Origin: Klebsiella phage phi1_146029
Sequence record: PP889479.1
DNA length: 64,000 nt
Direction: 5' to 3' (one strand)
Shown here piece by piece: positions 21,053 to 24,848 of this stretch. The translations under genes and the position numbers were made by a program. Every line of letters begins with the position of its first letter. Position 1 is the stretch's first letter. The notes under the pieces were generated by a model that saw only the letters and a program-made list of their open reading frames with translations, was not told where the DNA came from and searched no databases.

Positions 21053-22276
21053 TTATTTCTTCATCAATGACATCAGATTTACGCTTTTGGGGACGGGAGG
21101 ACTTTCTAATTTTGCCGTCAGAATATTGTGTTCTTTCGCCTCCCAGCGCGTACCTTTTTGTAGGTGCCAAATATGAAGGGGAACGCCCGTCTCAAAGAAC
21201 ACCGGCATCTTCCACTTCTGGACACCTGGGACGTGCCCTGCGGGAGCCTTCTCGCATAACAGGGTATCTGGTAACCAGAGTGAACGGGCTTCCCAGAGTG
21301 CCGCGCAGGAGTATTCCGGCCAGATGCGTTCCATGTAGTCGATTTCATCCCAGGTACGCTCGGCATCCCACCCGATATAACGAGTGTTCTTCAGACGGAA
21401 GAATTTCTTCAGCCAACATGCACCGGAGGTCTCAAAGTTCAGACGGTTGATGAAAGTCAGTTCGCCAAACTCTTCTACGCATTCACGGAAAGCCTTTTCC
21501 AAATCGGCTTCCAGGATGTCGCATTCTTCATCCGTGATCGGACAACCGTCGATCTTTTTCTTCCCGTGTTTGGTCACCCAATCATCACGGTTAGAAAGGA
21601 AGGCCGCGCCATTGCGGTTTGATTCACTGCCATCGCGATCACGCAGCATAAACCCAGGAACGTCAATCTGCCACATGTTCCCGAACACCATGTTCAGGGC
21701 TTCCAGGAAGTTCCAGGCGCTCAGGCGGCCGAAGTATTTCCAGGACATAGCGGTGTCCCACAGCTTAACGAACTGGTCACCTTGGGGCTTGGTCTCCAAC
21801 ATCGGTCGGAATGCTTCCATCTGGGTGCGTCCAGCCAGCCAATTCACATAAGACTGAACACATGGGATCATCTTCGACTTGCGGTAGCGACAATCAGTAT
21901 CGAAGCGCATGCGCTCAAAGTTCAGGTTGTACCAATCACAGAAGCGCTGCATCTCTTCTTTAGTCTGAGGCGGCACCGGAAACTCAGAATAGATTGTCCA
22001 CGGGCCGATAGCATTATAGCAGCAACCCCAAAGGAACGACATCCAGATCTTGCGCTCGATCTTTTCCAGACTGGTGATGCCTTCCGTGACTTCAATAGCA
22101 TAATCCATCAGACGCATCTGCTGGTTGTGCTCTTCAGTGTAGGACAGCGCTTCCACCCAAGCCTTGAGGAGATACATCCGGTTTTCAGGCTTGCGATAGT
22201 CAACCTTCAGATCGATGGGATACTTCCATTGCTCAGGGGCTTTATACCCCTGCGGCATTTTAGATAAATGGGTCAT
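21053..22276 (-). CDS. large hypothetical enzyme; candidate DNA-base hypermodification transferase (aGPT-pyrophosphorylase-like?) - inference only
   Basis: 407-aa Trp/Cys-rich ORF adjacent to a P-loop kinase; no motif I can verify by eye. Confidence 0.3.
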   Translation of the reverse strand: MTHLSKMPQGYKAPEQWKYPIDLKVDYRKPENRMYLLKAWVEALSYTEEHNQQMRLMDYAIEVTEGITSLEKIERKIWMSFLWGCCYNAIGPWTIYSEFPVPPQTKEEMQRFCDWYNLNFERMRFDTDCRYRKSKMIPCVQSYVNWLAGRTQMEAFRPMLETKPQGDQFVKLWDTAMSWKYFGRLSAWNFLEALNMVFGNMWQIDVPGFMLRDRDGSESNRNGAAFLSNRDDWVTKHGKKKIDGCPITDEECDILEADLEKAFRECVEEFGELTFINRLNFETSGACWLKKFFRLKNTRYIGWDAERTWDEIDYMERIWPEYSCAALWEARSLWLPDTLLCEKAPAGHVPGVQKWKMPVFFETGVPLHIWHLQKGTRWEAKEHNILTAKLESPPVPKSVNLMSLMKK

Positions 22277-22279
22277 ACA

Positions 22280-22660
22280 TCAATCCTTTTCGCCGACGGA
22301 ACTTGAAAGTTCTTCATCTCCAGGATGAGGCTGAACTGGCTCCAGCTGGATTTGTTCCGCAGTAACCGGGCCAAGTTCTGAGTGCCAAATGTCTACGAAG
22401 CGCTTATCAGAAGTCACAACCCACATGCGCTTGGCTTTATTGGAACGGTCGGCAATGAATGCCTGGGCGTTGGCACTGGTACGGACGAGGCCAACCTGGC
22501 GCCACTGACCGAAATCTTTAGACGCGGGGTTAGTGTTCAGCTGAAACTGCGGAATAACCCGGTTATCTTCCGGATAATAACGGACAGCATTGATCATCTT
22601 GGCATCGCCTTTATAATCAATAGCGATAGCCACGGCATCACGGGGGATCAAAATTTTCAT
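22280..22660 (-). CDS. hypothetical protein
   Basis: 126-aa ORF. Confidence 0.35.
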   Translation of the reverse strand: MKILIPRDAVAIAIDYKGDAKMINAVRYYPEDNRVIPQFQLNTNPASKDFGQWRQVGLVRTSANAQAFIADRSNKAKRMWVVTSDKRFVDIWHSELGPVTAEQIQLEPVQPHPGDEELSSSVGEKD

Positions 22661-22860
22661 TTCATTTCCTTTAAAAATAATTTATAGACAACAGGTATAA
22701 AGAACGATAAGAAGCCGAACCAGTAAACCACATTCATGGTTTTCTTTTCTGCTTCTGACAGATCAATGAAACCATAATGATACACTATCATGGTTAATAA
22801 TGAGGCTAAACAAGTGATCGCCCCGACCAATAAAATTGCATCCAACCACTTGCTGTTCAT
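22657..22860 (-). CDS. small membrane protein
   Basis: 67 aa, two TM helices. Confidence 0.3.
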   Translation of the reverse strand: MNSKWLDAILLVGAITCLASLLTMIVYHYGFIDLSEAEKKTMNVVYWFGFLSFFIPVVYKLFLKEMK

Positions 22861-22862
22861 CT

Positions 22863-23747
22863 TTATTTCCTCAACATCATAGCCAGCACGTTAGAACTTT
22901 TGGACAGCTGTTTCTTTTCATCAGCCGTCTTCTTGACAACCTGGCGGCGGGTAGCCTTTTCCGGTACGCGATGCGCCAGCGGGTCTGAACCACCAACTTC
23001 ACGGGTCATTGGATGGTCTTCGCAATACTTATAGAATTCTTTGAAGACGAACCCAGCGTCACGGACTTCATTGATGATCATGTGATGAATGGCATTACCA
23101 ATGACCCACAGCGGTGCGTCGAATGGCAATTGGGCAACTTCGCTGCCAACGCCGTTCTTTTTGTAGAGGACGTCCTGACCGCTGTATGAATCTACAACGA
23201 CATCCCAGCCCGCCGCCACCATTTCAGATTTAGACTTTTCAAATTCTTTCTGATAAGACTCATTCCGAGTCCAGCCCGAATCCCCGGCTTCTTTACCAGA
23301 ACGCCCACGGATACGAGCATCATACTGATAACGATCCGGATACGTGAAGTACAACAGCGCCAGTTGCTCAATGGGATAATTGGCAAACATCCATTCTGGA
23401 CGCCATTTATCAGACAGCATCAGCGGTTCACCCTCACAGACCAGCGTATATCCCGCGCTGAGATGTTCTTTGACCAGTTCGCGGGCGATATCACCAGAAC
23501 CTGTCGCGGCATGGATAGCGTCCATCGAGGTCCACGAGGCAAGACCGGATTTGTTTGACGCAGTATACTGGCCGACAAACATTAATTTCAGTTCATCAAA
23601 GGCCAGGCCAAACAGGCGCGTTTTATCGCCGATGGTATAAGTGACCTCGCGCGGCTCAAGGCGAGTACGCAGCCATTCTATGAACTGTACGACACGAGTA
23701 CCCTTGCCCGTGCCGCTTGTGCCTTTGATTACAATCAGTTTTGACAT
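22863..23747 (-). CDS. P-loop nucleotide/nucleic-acid kinase (candidate 5-hydroxymethyl-dU DNA kinase-type enzyme)
   Basis: Walker A GTSGTGKGT at N-terminus; 294 aa; sits with other nucleotide-metabolism genes. Confidence 0.5.
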   Translation of the reverse strand: MSKLIVIKGTSGTGKGTRVVQFIEWLRTRLEPREVTYTIGDKTRLFGLAFDELKLMFVGQYTASNKSGLASWTSMDAIHAATGSGDIARELVKEHLSAGYTLVCEGEPLMLSDKWRPEWMFANYPIEQLALLYFTYPDRYQYDARIRGRSGKEAGDSGWTRNESYQKEFEKSKSEMVAAGWDVVVDSYSGQDVLYKKNGVGSEVAQLPFDAPLWVIGNAIHHMIINEVRDAGFVFKEFYKYCEDHPMTREVGGSDPLAHRVPEKATRRQVVKKTADEKKQLSKSSNVLAMMLRK

Positions 23748-24124
23748 TATTTGTCATCCTCAATACGCCAGCTCACGCCGCCAATCCACGGTGCCCAAAA
23801 GACAGCCACCTGCGGAATACCGTTTTCTTCAAACTTTACTTTATACTGGTCGTCAAAGTTATAGAATATTTCTTCGTCATCAGGAGACATCCCAATCTCA
23901 CTCAAGACACGCTTCAGTTCTTTAGCCGCTCCAACAGAGGAAGGATTCTCTTGAGAACGGATGTAGTTATTGATATGAATGATGACGCCATCCATATCAC
24001 TATCCCCTGATCGTTTGTCAGGGCATTCTACCACTTTCAGCAATTCGTTAGACACTTCAGACTCCTTGACGGACAAATTGGTAATGTGCAACCAGGCGGT
24101 CAACGACTTCTGTAAAATTCTCAC
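23747..24124 (-). CDS. hypothetical protein
   Basis: 125-aa ORF. Confidence 0.35.
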   Translation of the reverse strand: MRILQKSLTAWLHITNLSVKESEVSNELLKVVECPDKRSGDSDMDGVIIHINNYIRSQENPSSVGAAKELKRVLSEIGMSPDDEEIFYNFDDQYKVKFEENGIPQVAVFWAPWIGGVSWRIEDDK

Positions 24125-24848
24125 GCAGATAGTCGAAGTGGTTGCGGCCTTCTACTGGTTTAACATATATCATGTTTTCTGAATCCGAAAGATCCAGTTT
24201 TTCATAATTCCCCTGAGGAACGAAGATGCTGAAAACATTGTTCCAGATGCACGGATCGACATATTTCGGATTGTCGTCAATCAAAACATCGCCAGCAACC
24301 ATGTGCTTTTCATCCGTGCTGATAAACCCATCAAAGATGTTCGGGAACTTGCCATACACGAACTGACGTTTGCTGCGTTCGTGCTCGGGTTCACATTTGG
24401 TGACAGCAACAAATTCCACCATTTCAAACTTCATGAGCAGCGCATCATGCAAGTTGTTCAAGAACTCTACCGCACCGGGCAACGGCTGCATACGGGAGTA
24501 CAGATCAGGTTGGCGCCAAAAGTCCATCGGGTCGCGTCCGTTTGACATATAATGAGTCTTACCGCCGATACTGACATATGAATGAGACCATGCCGGATGA
24601 GCACGTTCACGCATCAGGATTGCCAAATCACCCGCATGGTTCATATAACATTGCTTGGTGATCGGCTGGAATTTAGCGGGGCCAACAAACCCATCCGGGA
24701 GACTTGCTTGGGCTTCCAGGTTTCCGTCATTAAACCATTTGACCCAAGGCGATAGACTATCGACCATTGTCAGATCAACGTCCACCAAAACCCGATACAG
24801 ACCTCCGACCTTTGAGTTCATATCGTATAGGCAAGTCAGGTTGTTCAT
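24057..24848 (-). CDS. HAD-superfamily 5'(3')-deoxyribonucleotidase-like protein
   Basis: DVDLT (DxDxT) motif I and LIDDNP motif IV; GGAGGAAG RBS; ATGA overlap with upstream gene. Confidence 0.5.
   Translation of the reverse strand: MNNLTCLYDMNSKVGGLYRVLVDVDLTMVDSLSPWVKWFNDGNLEAQASLPDGFVGPAKFQPITKQCYMNHAGDLAILMRERAHPAWSHSYVSIGGKTHYMSNGRDPMDFWRQPDLYSRMQPLPGAVEFLNNLHDALLMKFEMVEFVAVTKCEPEHERSKRQFVYGKFPNIFDGFISTDEKHMVAGDVLIDDNPKYVDPCIWNNVFSIFVPQGNYEKLDLSDSENMIYVKPVEGRNHFDYLRENFTEVVDRLVAHYQFVRQGV

Follow-up and report, generated by a model that had tools for sequence, protein, structure and literature searches.

The locus around positions 21053-24848 of the DNA analysed here (the window, a 64,000-nucleotide stretch of Klebsiella phage phi1_146029, PP889479.1) very probably represents the post-replicative half of the Ackermannviridae pathway for hypermodification of thymidine to 5-NeOmdU, accompanied by HAD and MazG-like enzymes that would shape the nucleotide pool. 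The pathway itself is already known: these genes are Klebsiella-phage copies of the characterised ViI-like system, not a new one. An earlier note, made from the sequence alone, had read the gene set as suggestive of thymidine hypermodification, and this reading is supported by the assignment of two of its proteins to the HMUD2 and ADDT families and by orthology to ViI gp243, gp247 and gp226 (72%, 87% and 87% identity, respectively).

The source phage belongs to the genus Taipeivirus, and phage vB_KpnM-20 is 99.1% identical to it at the DNA level across 21053-24848, although several indels distinguish the vB_KpnM-20 genome from the window. The locus has matches in 278 phage records at the DNA level and in 377 at the protein level. 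The ORF listing contained all six of the ORFs that the earlier note had named, each on the minus strand, as well as three small conserved ORFs within the interval that it had passed over (Table 1).

Table 1. Features of the hypermodification locus and associated genes in the window.
Coordinates	Strand	Length (aa)	Assignment	ViI counterpart	Basis
11-382	-	123	Small HAD protein		
8084-8662	-	192	All-alpha NTP pyrophosphohydrolase (MazG/dimeric dUTPase superfamily)	Vi01_011	
21053-22276	-	407	Amino acid:DNA transferase (ADDT, formerly aGPT-Pplase2)	gp247	Pfam and ViI identity
22280-22660	-	126	Gene between kinase and transferase	orf245	phrog_4163, E 3.5e-68
22657-22860	-	67	Hydrophobic ORF directly downstream of kinase	orf244	Position and length as in ViI
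22863-23747	-	294	5-hmdU DNA kinase type 2 (HMUD2)	gp243	Pfam and ViI identity
23747-24055	-	102	DUF7254 gene between HAD and kinase	orf240	Pfam, E 2e-45
24057-24848	-	263	HAD superfamily, 5'(3')-deoxyribonucleotidase (NT5C)-like	Vi01_194	Pfam and ViI identity
25245-28241			Family-B DNA polymerase, phage-encoded		
30979-32349	-	456 (longest ORF)	PLP-dependent decarboxylase (fold-type II, tryptophan synthase beta-like)	gp226	ViI identity

Salmonella phage ViI (Vi01) makes 5-NeOmdU using two 5-hmdU DNA kinases, gp243 and gp67, the serine:DNA transferase gp247 and the PLP decarboxylase gp226 (Lee et al. 2018 PNAS; Lee et al. 2021/22 NAR). Work with purified proteins has shown that gp243 phosphorylates 5-hmdU DNA in vitro, that gp247 is a serine:DNA transferase and that gp226 is an O-serinyl-thymidine decarboxylase (PMC8989533), and ViI protein biochemistry is also described in PMC5889632. 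The window and ViI share gene-for-gene orthologues at 72-87% amino-acid identity in an identical local order, together with the catalytic Cys/Glu pair and the PLP lysine, and the near-identical vB_KpnM-20 encodes the remainder of the pathway. They differ in genus (Kuttervirus for ViI) and in host (Klebsiella here), and the N termini of their PLP ORFs are dissimilar.

The kinase matches the Pfam family PF18747 HMUD2 ("5-hmdU DNA kinase 2") over profile positions 1-297 of 298 (E 1.2e-138, 461.8 bits) and is 71.6% identical to ViI gp243 over 303 residues. Its N-terminal sequence, MSKLIVIKGTSGTGKGTRV, includes the P-loop GTSGTGKGT that had been noticed previously, at residues 9-17 and in the adenylate-kinase-type form GxxGxGKGT. 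Its predicted reaction is phosphorylation of 5-hmdU in DNA at the 5-hydroxymethyl group, which yields 5-PmdU.

Downstream, the 407-residue protein matches Pfam PF18724 ADDT at residues 49-292 (E 3.9e-59, 200.6 bits), is 86.9% identical to ViI gp247 across all 411 gp247 residues and has a 100% identical copy in vB_KpnM-20. Its description as Trp/Cys-rich holds (21 Trp, 5.2%; 11 Cys, 2.7%). Profile searches thus placed the kinase in HMUD2 and the 407-residue protein in ADDT/aGPT-Pplase2, the opposite of the outcome that the earlier note had regarded as fatal to its reading, namely a dNMP or polynucleotide kinase next to a protein of an unrelated family. Residues E282, T283, C287 and W288 do not vary in 28 homologues with identities as low as 39%. 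In an hhalign comparison that is weak taken alone (probability 3.5%, E 0.012), these residues pair with E243, T244, C247 and W249 of PaMx11 gp46, while a naive MAFFT alignment gave C341, not C287, as the partner of the PaMx11 catalytic cysteine. The putative catalytic pair E282/C287 is conserved across the homologues. The AlphaFold model (pLDDT 88.8) had confident PDB matches only to PaMx11 gp46/PUGT (8Z2N and 8Z2M; probability 1.00, target-normalised TM 0.55-0.62). PaMx11 gp46 and M6 gp51 are glycine:DNA transferases of the same Pfam family, and they share with the 407-residue protein both its fold and the catalytic motif E-T-x(2-3)-C-(x)-W. However, neither gives a significant pairwise BLASTP match to it (E 0.27 and 7.7), and it exceeds them in length by about 115 residues, carrying a Trp-rich C-terminal extension that is conserved and lies past the end of the Pfam domain at residue 292. 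The nucleophile also differs, being a serine hydroxyl here and a glycine amine there. In line with its orthology to gp247, the protein is predicted to form O-serinyl-thymidine, the side-chain oxygen of L-serine taking the place of the phosphate on 5-phosphomethyl-dU in DNA.

The PLP enzyme is 87.4% identical to residues 30-424 of ViI gp226 and matches phrog_3650 (E 1e-232), and its Pfam PALP match is sub-threshold (E 1.5e-4, 21.7 bits against a cut-off of 35). The gene has two candidate starts, at 32349, which has a good AGGAG site, and at 32199, and the N-terminal ~55 residues of the ORF are unlike those of ViI. K123 (456-residue numbering) aligns with ViI K92 and M6 gp52 K36, the proposed internal-aldimine lysines (PMC8989533); the Schiff-base lysine is thus kept. 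An assignment to the ACC-deaminase family had been proposed for this protein; the fold-type II (PALP) superfamily is indeed common to both, but the ViI orthologue decarboxylates an amino acid that is attached to DNA. The enzyme is accordingly given here as a predicted decarboxylase that would produce 5-NeOmdU from O-serinyl-thymidine in DNA.

The 263-residue HAD protein, previously described as 5'-nucleotidase-like, matches Pfam NT5C (E 1.9e-8, 34.9 bits against a gathering cut-off of 24.8) and is 70% identical to ViI orf239. Motif I (VDVDLT, residues 22-27) and motif IV (IDDN) are intact, and weak PDB sequence matches to the human mitochondrial and cytosolic deoxyribonucleotidases have the PLPGAVE and LIDDxP motifs within the alignment. 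The 192-residue protein had been called MazG-like, in agreement with its match to phrog_1247 'MazG-like pyrophosphatase' (E 8.7e-38); searches of Pfam, NCBIfam and the PDB gave no sequence match. It is 76% identical to ViI Vi01_011, and its acidic motif E32-E33-x-x-E36 ... E53-x-x-D56 is unvarying in 25 homologues. The AlphaFold model (pLDDT 91.8) has a dimeric-dUTPase-type fold, with best PDB matches to the staphylococcal-phage dimeric dUTPases 5MYD, 5MYF and 5MIL (probability 0.98-1.00, TM about 0.5) and a further match to the Campylobacter dimeric dUTPase 1W2Y (probability 0.90). The second, smaller HAD protein that the earlier note had grouped with these genes exists and matches the BT0820-type HAD phosphatases (E 6e-25, below the equivalog cut-off), but nothing links it to the modification pathway.

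The three small ORFs also have counterparts in ViI. The DUF7254 protein, whose gene starts with GTG at 24055 preceded by AAGGAG, is 82% identical to ViI orf240, and the 126-residue protein, for which a Pfam search gave no match, is 63.6% identical to orf245. The 67-residue ORF had a single, sub-threshold family match, to a 7TM region. In ViI the kinase is followed by genes for proteins of 67 and 116 residues and then by the transferase, and the order polymerase, DUF7292, HAD, DUF7254, kinase, 67-residue ORF, ~120-residue ORF, transferase is common to the window and ViI. The order polymerase, HAD, kinase, transferase is kept in Vibrio phage 1.255.O, where the deposited annotation 'HAD-like domain protein' is the sole basis for the HAD assignment, and in a metagenomic relative of 141 kb, whose HAD gene was tested and is homologous. 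In both, the hydroxymethylase and a dUTPase lie within the same block. The metagenomic phage in which this homologue fills the slot between polymerase and kinase is roughly 50% diverged.

The earlier note had proposed looking for a dUMP hydroxymethylase elsewhere in the genome, and a homologue is present in the 99%-identical vB_KpnM-20, outside the region corresponding to the window. Next to it are genes for the first 5-hmdU DNA kinase, for a dNMP kinase-like protein and for a dimeric dUTPase, and the outside-window set also includes a gp160 homologue and a dCMP deaminase. Family matches in this set were HMUDK_HMUD1 (kinase; E 1.4e-105), Thymidylat_synt (E 1.2e-14), dUTPase_2 and HMUDK_hel (E 4.8e-81). 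The hydroxymethylase and first kinase are thus read from a closely related genome, not from the window.

Many public records describe several of these proteins differently: the 294-residue protein is labelled 'guanylate kinase' (also the label of PHROG 4409), the 407-residue protein 'putative thiol-disulfide isomerase/thioredoxins-like protein', and a third annotation reads 'putative 5'(3')-deoxyribonucleotidase'. That the genes encode ordinary nucleotide-salvage enzymes with no part in DNA base modification is nevertheless extremely improbable, given that guanylate kinase and thioredoxin families gave no match in Pfam or NCBIfam, that the specific matches were instead to HMUD2 and ADDT, and that 5-hmdU DNA kinase and serine:DNA transferase activities have been demonstrated for the ViI orthologues (PMC8989533). 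The guanylate kinase and thioredoxin-like labels are propagated annotation errors. It is also very unlikely that a ViI-type pathway ends in another base in Klebsiella phages, through use of another amino acid or a different PLP reaction, as in M6 (5-NedU) and PaMx11 (N-alpha-GlyT/5-NmdU). ADDT enzymes of various phages do take glycine, serine or putrescine (PMC8989533 Table 1), their specificity is unreadable from sequence because the substrate-determining residues are undefined, and the divergent N terminus of the PLP ORF would fit such a difference. However, the transferase and decarboxylase both share 87% identity with their ViI counterparts, and the far more distant 1.255.O, whose transferase is 53.5% identical to the one described here, still yields the 301-Da 5-NeOmdU nucleoside (PMC5889632). 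Furthermore, the Taipeivirus Escherichia phage phiHS2 contains 5-NeOmdU by HPLC-MS/MS, at 16.4% of dT (bioRxiv 10.64898/2026.05.19.726188). Downstream of the transferase step the enzymes differ from those of PaMx11 and M6: a PLP decarboxylase is the one seen here, and a Pfam scan of about 29 of the roughly 79 window ORFs revealed neither a radical-SAM isomerase nor a flavin-dependent lyase.

It is possible, if on balance doubtful, that the NT5C-like HAD and MazG-like proteins are general housekeeping or host-takeover enzymes unconnected with thymidine exclusion, beside a modification system made up of the kinase, transferase and PLP enzyme. We found no experiment in the literature on ViI-like phages giving the substrate of either protein, the MazG-like gene lies 13 kb away from the cluster, adjoining topoisomerase genes, and two further pyrophosphatases outside the window, the dUTPase_2 protein by the hydroxymethylase and a MazG-like protein by the gp160 orthologue, are better placed to act as the dUTP/dTTPase. 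Against this, a HAD-type gene occupies the slot between polymerase and 5-hmdU DNA kinase in Kuttervirus, Taipeivirus, 1.255.O (by annotation) and a metagenomic relative at 25% identity, and hmU-type phages need a dTMPase and a dTTPase (PMC8989533). The Bacillus hmU phages (SPO1, SP8, phi-e and 2C) exclude dTTP by means of dTMPase, dTTPase/dUTPase, dCMP deaminase and dUMP hydroxymethylase, a pre-replicative logic that is cited for ViI-type phages too (PMC8989533). By activity, there is a candidate for each in this genome, including the NT5C-like HAD and the all-alpha NTP pyrophosphatases; 5-hmdU is the end product in the Bacillus phages, whereas it is hypermodified further in the Taipeivirus/ViI lineage. 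Synteny supports a role in the modification system, the HAD plausibly being a dTMP nucleotidase that excludes thymidine from the nucleotide pool and the MazG-like protein plausibly a dTTP-depleting dUTP/dTTP pyrophosphatase.

Overall, the mechanism established for the ViI orthologues is carried over to the source phage by orthology, and 5-NeOmdU is for this reason a predicted product. The dCMP deaminase, thymidylate-synthase-like dUMP hydroxymethylase, dNMP kinase-like protein and dimeric dUTPase encoded outside the window would supply 5-hmdUTP, which the family-B DNA polymerase would incorporate as 5-hmdU instead of T, with the NT5C-like HAD (as dTMPase) and the dimeric-dUTPase/MazG-like protein (as dUTP/dTTP pyrophosphatase) most likely keeping dTTP out of replication. 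The HMUD2 kinase and a second kinase encoded elsewhere in the genome would then act on the DNA polymer, phosphorylating its hydroxymethyl groups. The transferase would flip the base, Cys287 would attack C6 and the phosphate would leave to give an exocyclic methylene, to which the hydroxyl of L-serine would add, forming the O-serinyl-thymidine that the PLP enzyme would decarboxylate to 5-(2-aminoethoxy)methyl-dU. This base has been measured in ViI, CBA6, CBA120 and 1.255.O (PMC5889632), and modified T amounts to about 40% in ViI against 16% in phiHS2. The latter shares its genus and predicted gene set with the source phage but is a separate species, whose tANI with the nearest Klebsiella members of the genus is about 80%, and of the enzymes tested only HincII was not resisted by its DNA (bioRxiv 10.64898/2026.05.19.726188). 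In the source phage, hypermodification would likewise affect part of the T positions (16-40% in measured relatives) and would render the DNA resistant to most type II restriction enzymes.

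The Salmonella phage ViI (Vi01; Ackermannviridae, Kuttervirus), CBA6, CBA120 and Vibrio phage 1.255.O carry 5-(2-aminoethoxy)methyl-deoxyuridine (5-NeOmdU) in place of about 40% of their T, and the base has been reconstituted from lysates expressing the ViI proteins gp67, gp160, gp226, gp243 and gp247 (Lee et al. 2018, PMC5889632). Phages of this type replicate first with 5-hydroxymethyl-dU (5-hmdU) in place of all T, dTTP being removed by functions like those of hmU phages, namely dTTPase, dTMPase, dCMP deaminase, dUMP hydroxymethylase and dNMP kinase (PMC8989533). Purified gp67 and gp243 phosphorylate 5-hmdU in DNA, gp247 transfers L-serine onto 5-phosphomethyl-dU (5-PmdU) to give O-serinyl-thymidine in a reaction for which a Cys and a Glu are essential, and gp226 is a PLP-dependent decarboxylase that yields 5-NeOmdU (Lee et al. 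2021, PMC8989533); the remaining 5-hmdU becomes thymine by an unexplained route (PMC8989533). The pathway genes are conserved across the Ackermannviridae (2024 review, PMC11721090), and HPLC-MS/MS has confirmed 5-NeOmdU, making up 16.4% of dT, in the DNA of the Taipeivirus phiHS2 (2026 preprint, bioRxiv 10.64898/2026.05.19.726188). Our analysis shows that the Klebsiella phage phi1_146029 locus is a textbook member of this already known Ackermannviridae pathway. The earlier note had inferred thymidine hypermodification from the gene set, and correctly so: profile searches put the kinase and the transferase in families specific to DNA-base modification rather than among dNMP or polynucleotide kinases or in an unrelated family.

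All of the ORFs that the earlier note had listed are present at the coordinates it gave, all on the minus strand, including the outlying MazG-like, PLP-enzyme and small HAD genes. The interval 21053-24848 holds six ORFs lying back to back on the minus strand; as transcription runs, a DUF7292 gene and the family-B DNA polymerase gene immediately precede them. By megablast, the region 20500-25300 is 99.1% identical to the Klebsiella phage vB_KpnM-20 (Ackermannviridae, Taipeivirus) and 92-97% identical to some forty other Klebsiella Taipeiviruses; altogether 278 phage records match it, mostly from phages of Salmonella, Klebsiella, Escherichia, Dickeya, Serratia and Shigella. The window as a whole is 97-98% identical to vB_KpnM-20, with a few indels. 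The main diverging block is the tail-spike/depolymerase region (89-94% identity or no match), which suggests that the two phages differ in capsule specificity although they are nearly identical in other regions. The window also carries a cluster of five tRNA genes (Gln-TTG, Tyr-GTA, Asn-GTT, Trp-CCA and Met-CAT). In the related phage PWKp5 the place of the tRNA-Trp gene is taken by two tRNA-Ser genes, and tRNA content therefore varies within the genus.

Features of the phi1_146029 window discussed in the text
Feature	Position	Strand	Match or remark
Small HAD phosphatase, 123 aa	11-382	-	BT0820-type relative
Macro-domain protein, 201 aa	2622-3227	-	DarG N-terminal domain-like
MazG-like protein, 192 aa	8084-8662	-	PHROG 1247
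Transferase, 407 aa	21053-22276	-	Pfam ADDT
Small ORF, 126 aa	22280-22660	-	matches ViI orf245
Membrane ORF, 67 aa	22657-22860	-	
5-hmdU DNA kinase (predicted), 294 aa	22863-23747	-	Pfam HMUD2
DUF7254 protein, 102 aa	23747-24055	-	GTG start behind AAGGAG site; matches ViI orf240
NT5C-like HAD protein, 263 aa	24057-24848	-	Pfam NT5C
T4-type family-B DNA polymerase	25245-28241		upstream of the cluster in transcription direction
151-aa protein	30334-30789	-	sub-threshold matches
PLP enzyme	30979-32349	-	sub-threshold Pfam PALP
Five tRNA genes	33376-34731	-	
Tail-spike/depolymerase region	43429-55446	+	diverges from vB_KpnM-20

The 294-aa protein matches Pfam PF18747, HMUD2 ("5-hmdU DNA kinase 2"), from end to end (461.8 bits, cut-off 25; E 1.2e-138), covering positions 1-297 of the 298 in the profile, and the P-loop quoted in the earlier note, the Walker A motif GTSGTGKGT, occupies residues 9-17. 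It shares its genomic position with ViI gp243, a protein of reported 5-hmdU DNA kinase activity (PMC8989533), and is 71.6% identical to it over 303/304 residues. Consistent with what had been guessed, it is thus a predicted 5-hmdU DNA kinase of the HMUD2 clade, an orthologue of gp243, and we reject the label "guanylate kinase" for it.

The 407-aa protein, noted earlier as rich in Trp and Cys (5.2% and 2.7%, respectively), matches Pfam PF18724, ADDT ("amino acid:DNA transferase", formerly aGPT-Pplase2), at 200.6 bits (cut-off 26.2; E 3.9e-59), the match covering positions 2-228 of the 232 in the profile. It shares 86.9% identity with ViI gp247 over its full length and is 100% identical to the protein of a phage already deposited. 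Serine as its co-substrate is inferred from this identity to gp247 and from the presence of 5-NeOmdU in related phages. Residues E282, T283, C287 and W288 are invariant in 28 transferase homologues with identities down to 39%, and E282 and C287 fall within the ADDT domain (residues 49-292). Compared pairwise by BLASTP, the transferase shows no significant similarity to the Pseudomonas phage proteins M6 gp51 and PaMx11 gp46, a single-sequence phmmer search of the PDB found no match, and a 28-sequence profile did not reach PaMx11 gp46 in the PDB, its sole match, to Rab-26, being spurious (E 0.66). An hhalign comparison pairs E-T-S-G-A-C-W with E-T-I-L-C-K-W of PaMx11 gp46, and hence E282 and C287 with E243 and C247, the latter being the catalytic nucleophile of gp46 (PMC11472151); its score is weak, and the pairing agrees with the residue invariance, the Pfam boundaries and the fold. 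The AlphaFold model (pLDDT 88.8) has as its top three Foldseek matches in the PDB two chains of 8Z2N (chain B first) and 8Z2M, all PaMx11 gp46 (PUGT), at probability 1.00; these are the sole confident ones, all remaining matches having probabilities of 0.08 or less. The modeled fold is accordingly that of gp46, helical and DNA-glycosylase-like. When five transferases of the ViI and M6 types were aligned with MAFFT, the alignment pointed instead to C341 as the catalytic Cys. We rejected this as a wrong pairing because C341 is not invariant in close homologues, as C287 is, because the Pfam domain ends at residue 292, and because hhalign pairs C287 with C247. The label "thioredoxin-like" for this protein was likewise rejected.

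In ViI-type transferases the ADDT domain is followed by a conserved C-terminal extension of about 115 residues that is rich in Trp (residues 293-407 here) and in which R299, Y300, G302, W303, T308 and E311 are invariant, whereas the glycine-transferring enzymes of M6 and PaMx11 lack it. The extension might contribute to specificity for serine or for DNA context. An ADDT homologue (41% identity) also occurs on a small siphovirus-like contig, a TARA marine scaffold (6587-9077), where it adjoins a TET/JBP dioxygenase and a ParB-N protein beside the terminase and no kinase is annotated. Here 5-hmU would arise in another way, by oxidation of T in DNA, and would then supply a transferase of the same family.

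The PLP enzyme is 87.4% identical to residues 30-424 of ViI gp226. Its K123 aligns, within a G-x-S-K-[LI]-R motif, with ViI K92 and with K36 of M6 gp52, which are the proposed aldimine lysines (PMC8989533). The match to Pfam PALP (PF00291) falls below threshold (21.7 bits against a cut-off of 35; E 1.5e-4), and single-sequence phmmer found no match in the PDB. We take the protein to be the orthologue of gp226, with the Schiff-base lysine kept, and a predicted nucleobase-amino-acid decarboxylase. Immediately downstream of this gene lies one whose 151-aa product matches DUF3990, ART-PolyVal ADP-ribosyltransferase and PADLOC PDC-M13A/B only weakly and below threshold; the segment 30337-31023 has no counterpart in vB_KpnM-20, but PWKp5 and ViI have genes of similar size at this position.

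We searched for the rest of the pathway by tblastn with the ViI proteins (the "gp" numbers of the literature are given as orf000NN notes in the Vi01 genome record) against the window and the complete vB_KpnM-20 genome. Outside the region equivalent to the window, vB_KpnM-20 encodes a gp67-type kinase (78.5% identity to ViI; Pfam HMUDK_HMUD1, E 1.4e-105), a thymidylate-synthase-like dUMP hydroxymethylase (86.5% to ViI thyA, orf66; Thymidylat_synt, E 1.2e-14), a dNMP kinase-like gene (74%), a dimeric dUTPase (66%; dUTPase_2), an orthologue of gp160 (68.7%; HMUDK_hel, E 4.8e-81), a second MazG-like gene and a dCMP deaminase. The dUMP hydroxymethylase that the earlier note had proposed to look for is absent from the 64-kb window but encoded in a genome 97-99% identical to it, and the enzyme therefore exists in this phage lineage. 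Among the approximately 29 window ORFs scanned with PADLOC and Pfam there was no additional modification enzyme, whether a radical-SAM enzyme, a flavin-dependent lyase or an acetyltransferase. All the pathway genes lie together in distant Ackermannviridae-like genomes, at 5839-14000 of a 141-kb metagenome scaffold (in the order polymerase, HAD, duplicated HMUD2, ADDT, HMUDK_hel, thymidylate-synthase homologue, dUTPase_2) and at 5293-15161 of Vibrio phage 1.255.O, whereas Kuttervirus and Taipeivirus have them spread over three loci.

The 263-aa protein scores above the gathering threshold for Pfam NT5C, the 5'(3')-deoxyribonucleotidase family (PF06941; 34.9 bits against 24.8; E 1.9e-8), the match covering only positions 55-140 of the 180 in the profile, and it matches the deoxyribonucleotidases mdN and cdN in the PDB at E 8.5e-4 to 0.17. 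The catalytic DxDxT and DD motifs are kept: in the alignment with human mitochondrial deoxyribonucleotidase (mdN), VDVDLT at residues 22-27 is paired with VDMDGV, and LIDDNP with LIDDRP. It is 70% identical to ViI Vi01_194. A HAD-type gene lies between the DNA polymerase and HMUD2 kinase genes in Kuttervirus and Taipeivirus; the same slot is occupied in 1.255.O by a gene annotated "HAD-like domain protein" (an assignment by annotation alone) and in the 141-kb scaffold by a HAD homologue (25% identity, E 8e-10). In both of these genomes the kinases, transferase, gp160-type gene, hydroxymethylase, dUTPase and HAD-type gene share one block of about 10 kb. This synteny supports a functional link of the HAD gene to the pathway, most simply as a candidate dTMPase of the pre-replicative branch. 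Alternatively, the HAD protein, the DUF7254 protein, the 67-aa membrane ORF and the 126-aa protein would be unrecognised pathway components, one of which might convert the remaining 5-hmdU or 5-PmdU to thymine or set which T positions are modified, the HAD protein then acting as a phosphatase on 5-PmdU in DNA and not as a simple dTMPase; we consider this very improbable and favor the candidate dTMPase. The HAD gene and the three small ORFs around the kinase gene are in any case candidates for the exclusion of dTTP and the conversion of 5-hmdU to T.

The 192-aa protein has no Pfam match even at E <=10, no NCBIfam match and no PDB sequence match by phmmer; its sole family match is PHROG 1247, "MazG-like pyrophosphatase" (E 8.7e-38), and it is 76% identical to ViI Vi01_011. 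Its AlphaFold model (pLDDT 91.8) is all helical, with the dimeric dUTPases 5MYD, 5MYF, 5MYI and 5MIL (probability 0.98-1.00) and 1W2Y (0.90) as best PDB matches, and the residues E32, E33, E36, E53 and D56 of its acidic metal-binding motif EExxE...ExxD are invariant. Because of the model match, the acidic motif and the PHROG match, we place it in the all-alpha NTP pyrophosphohydrolase (MazG/dimeric dUTPase) superfamily; "MazG-like" is thus right at the superfamily level, although curated sequence families give no match. Its gene lies 13 kb from the cluster, beside topoisomerase genes, and two other pyrophosphatases in the genome are better placed, so that its tie to the pathway is weaker. The 123-aa protein, which carries DFDGT and YIDDA motifs, is a relative of the BT0820-family HAD-type phosphatases (E 6e-25, under the equivalog cut-off), its PHROG family being labelled "phosphoheptose isomerase"; the reading of it as a second small HAD phosphatase stands, but we found no link to thymidine metabolism.

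Modification in phi1_146029 would begin with depletion of the dTTP pool and supply of 5-hmdUTP, from which the polymerase would incorporate 5-hmdU, as family membership, synteny and the precedent of hmU phages suggest. The later steps have been shown for the ViI orthologues: one or more DNA kinases would make 5-PmdU; the transferase would flip the base, Cys287 adding at C6, the phosphate leaving and the serine hydroxyl adding to the exocyclic methylene; and the PLP enzyme would remove CO2 to leave 5-NeOmdU. The resulting DNA would be resistant to most type II restriction enzymes (PMC11721090; bioRxiv 10.64898/2026.05.19.726188).

Elsewhere in the window, a 201-aa macro-domain protein resembles the N-terminal ADP-ribosyl-glycohydrolase domain of DarG (NCBIfam NF048014, E 1.6e-10; PADLOC DarG, E 2e-10), and its PWKp5 counterpart is annotated "macro domain-containing protein". 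Since the DarG antitoxin strips ADP-ribose from thymidine in DNA, a phage that modifies its thymidine could use such a stand-alone protein to counter DarT toxins.

The genes of this pathway are systematically mislabelled in public records (MZ826764, NC_015296, NC_047901 and others). The transferase appears as "thiol-disulfide isomerase/thioredoxin-like", the HMUD2 kinase as "guanylate kinase", the gp67-type kinase of ViI, M6 and PaMx11 as "terminase small subunit", and the gp160 orthologue as "phospholipid-lipopolysaccharide ABC transporter"; the labels "thiol-disulfide isomerase", "guanylate kinase", "terminase small subunit" and "ABC transporter" are wrong for these genes. As a discovery the locus carries little weight, the ViI pathway, its enzymes and its product having been worked out in 2018-2021 and a Taipeivirus confirmed by mass spectrometry; the practical value of the analysis lies in correcting this widespread mis-annotation. 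For phage therapy, restriction-resistant DNA is to be expected in these Klebsiella phages.
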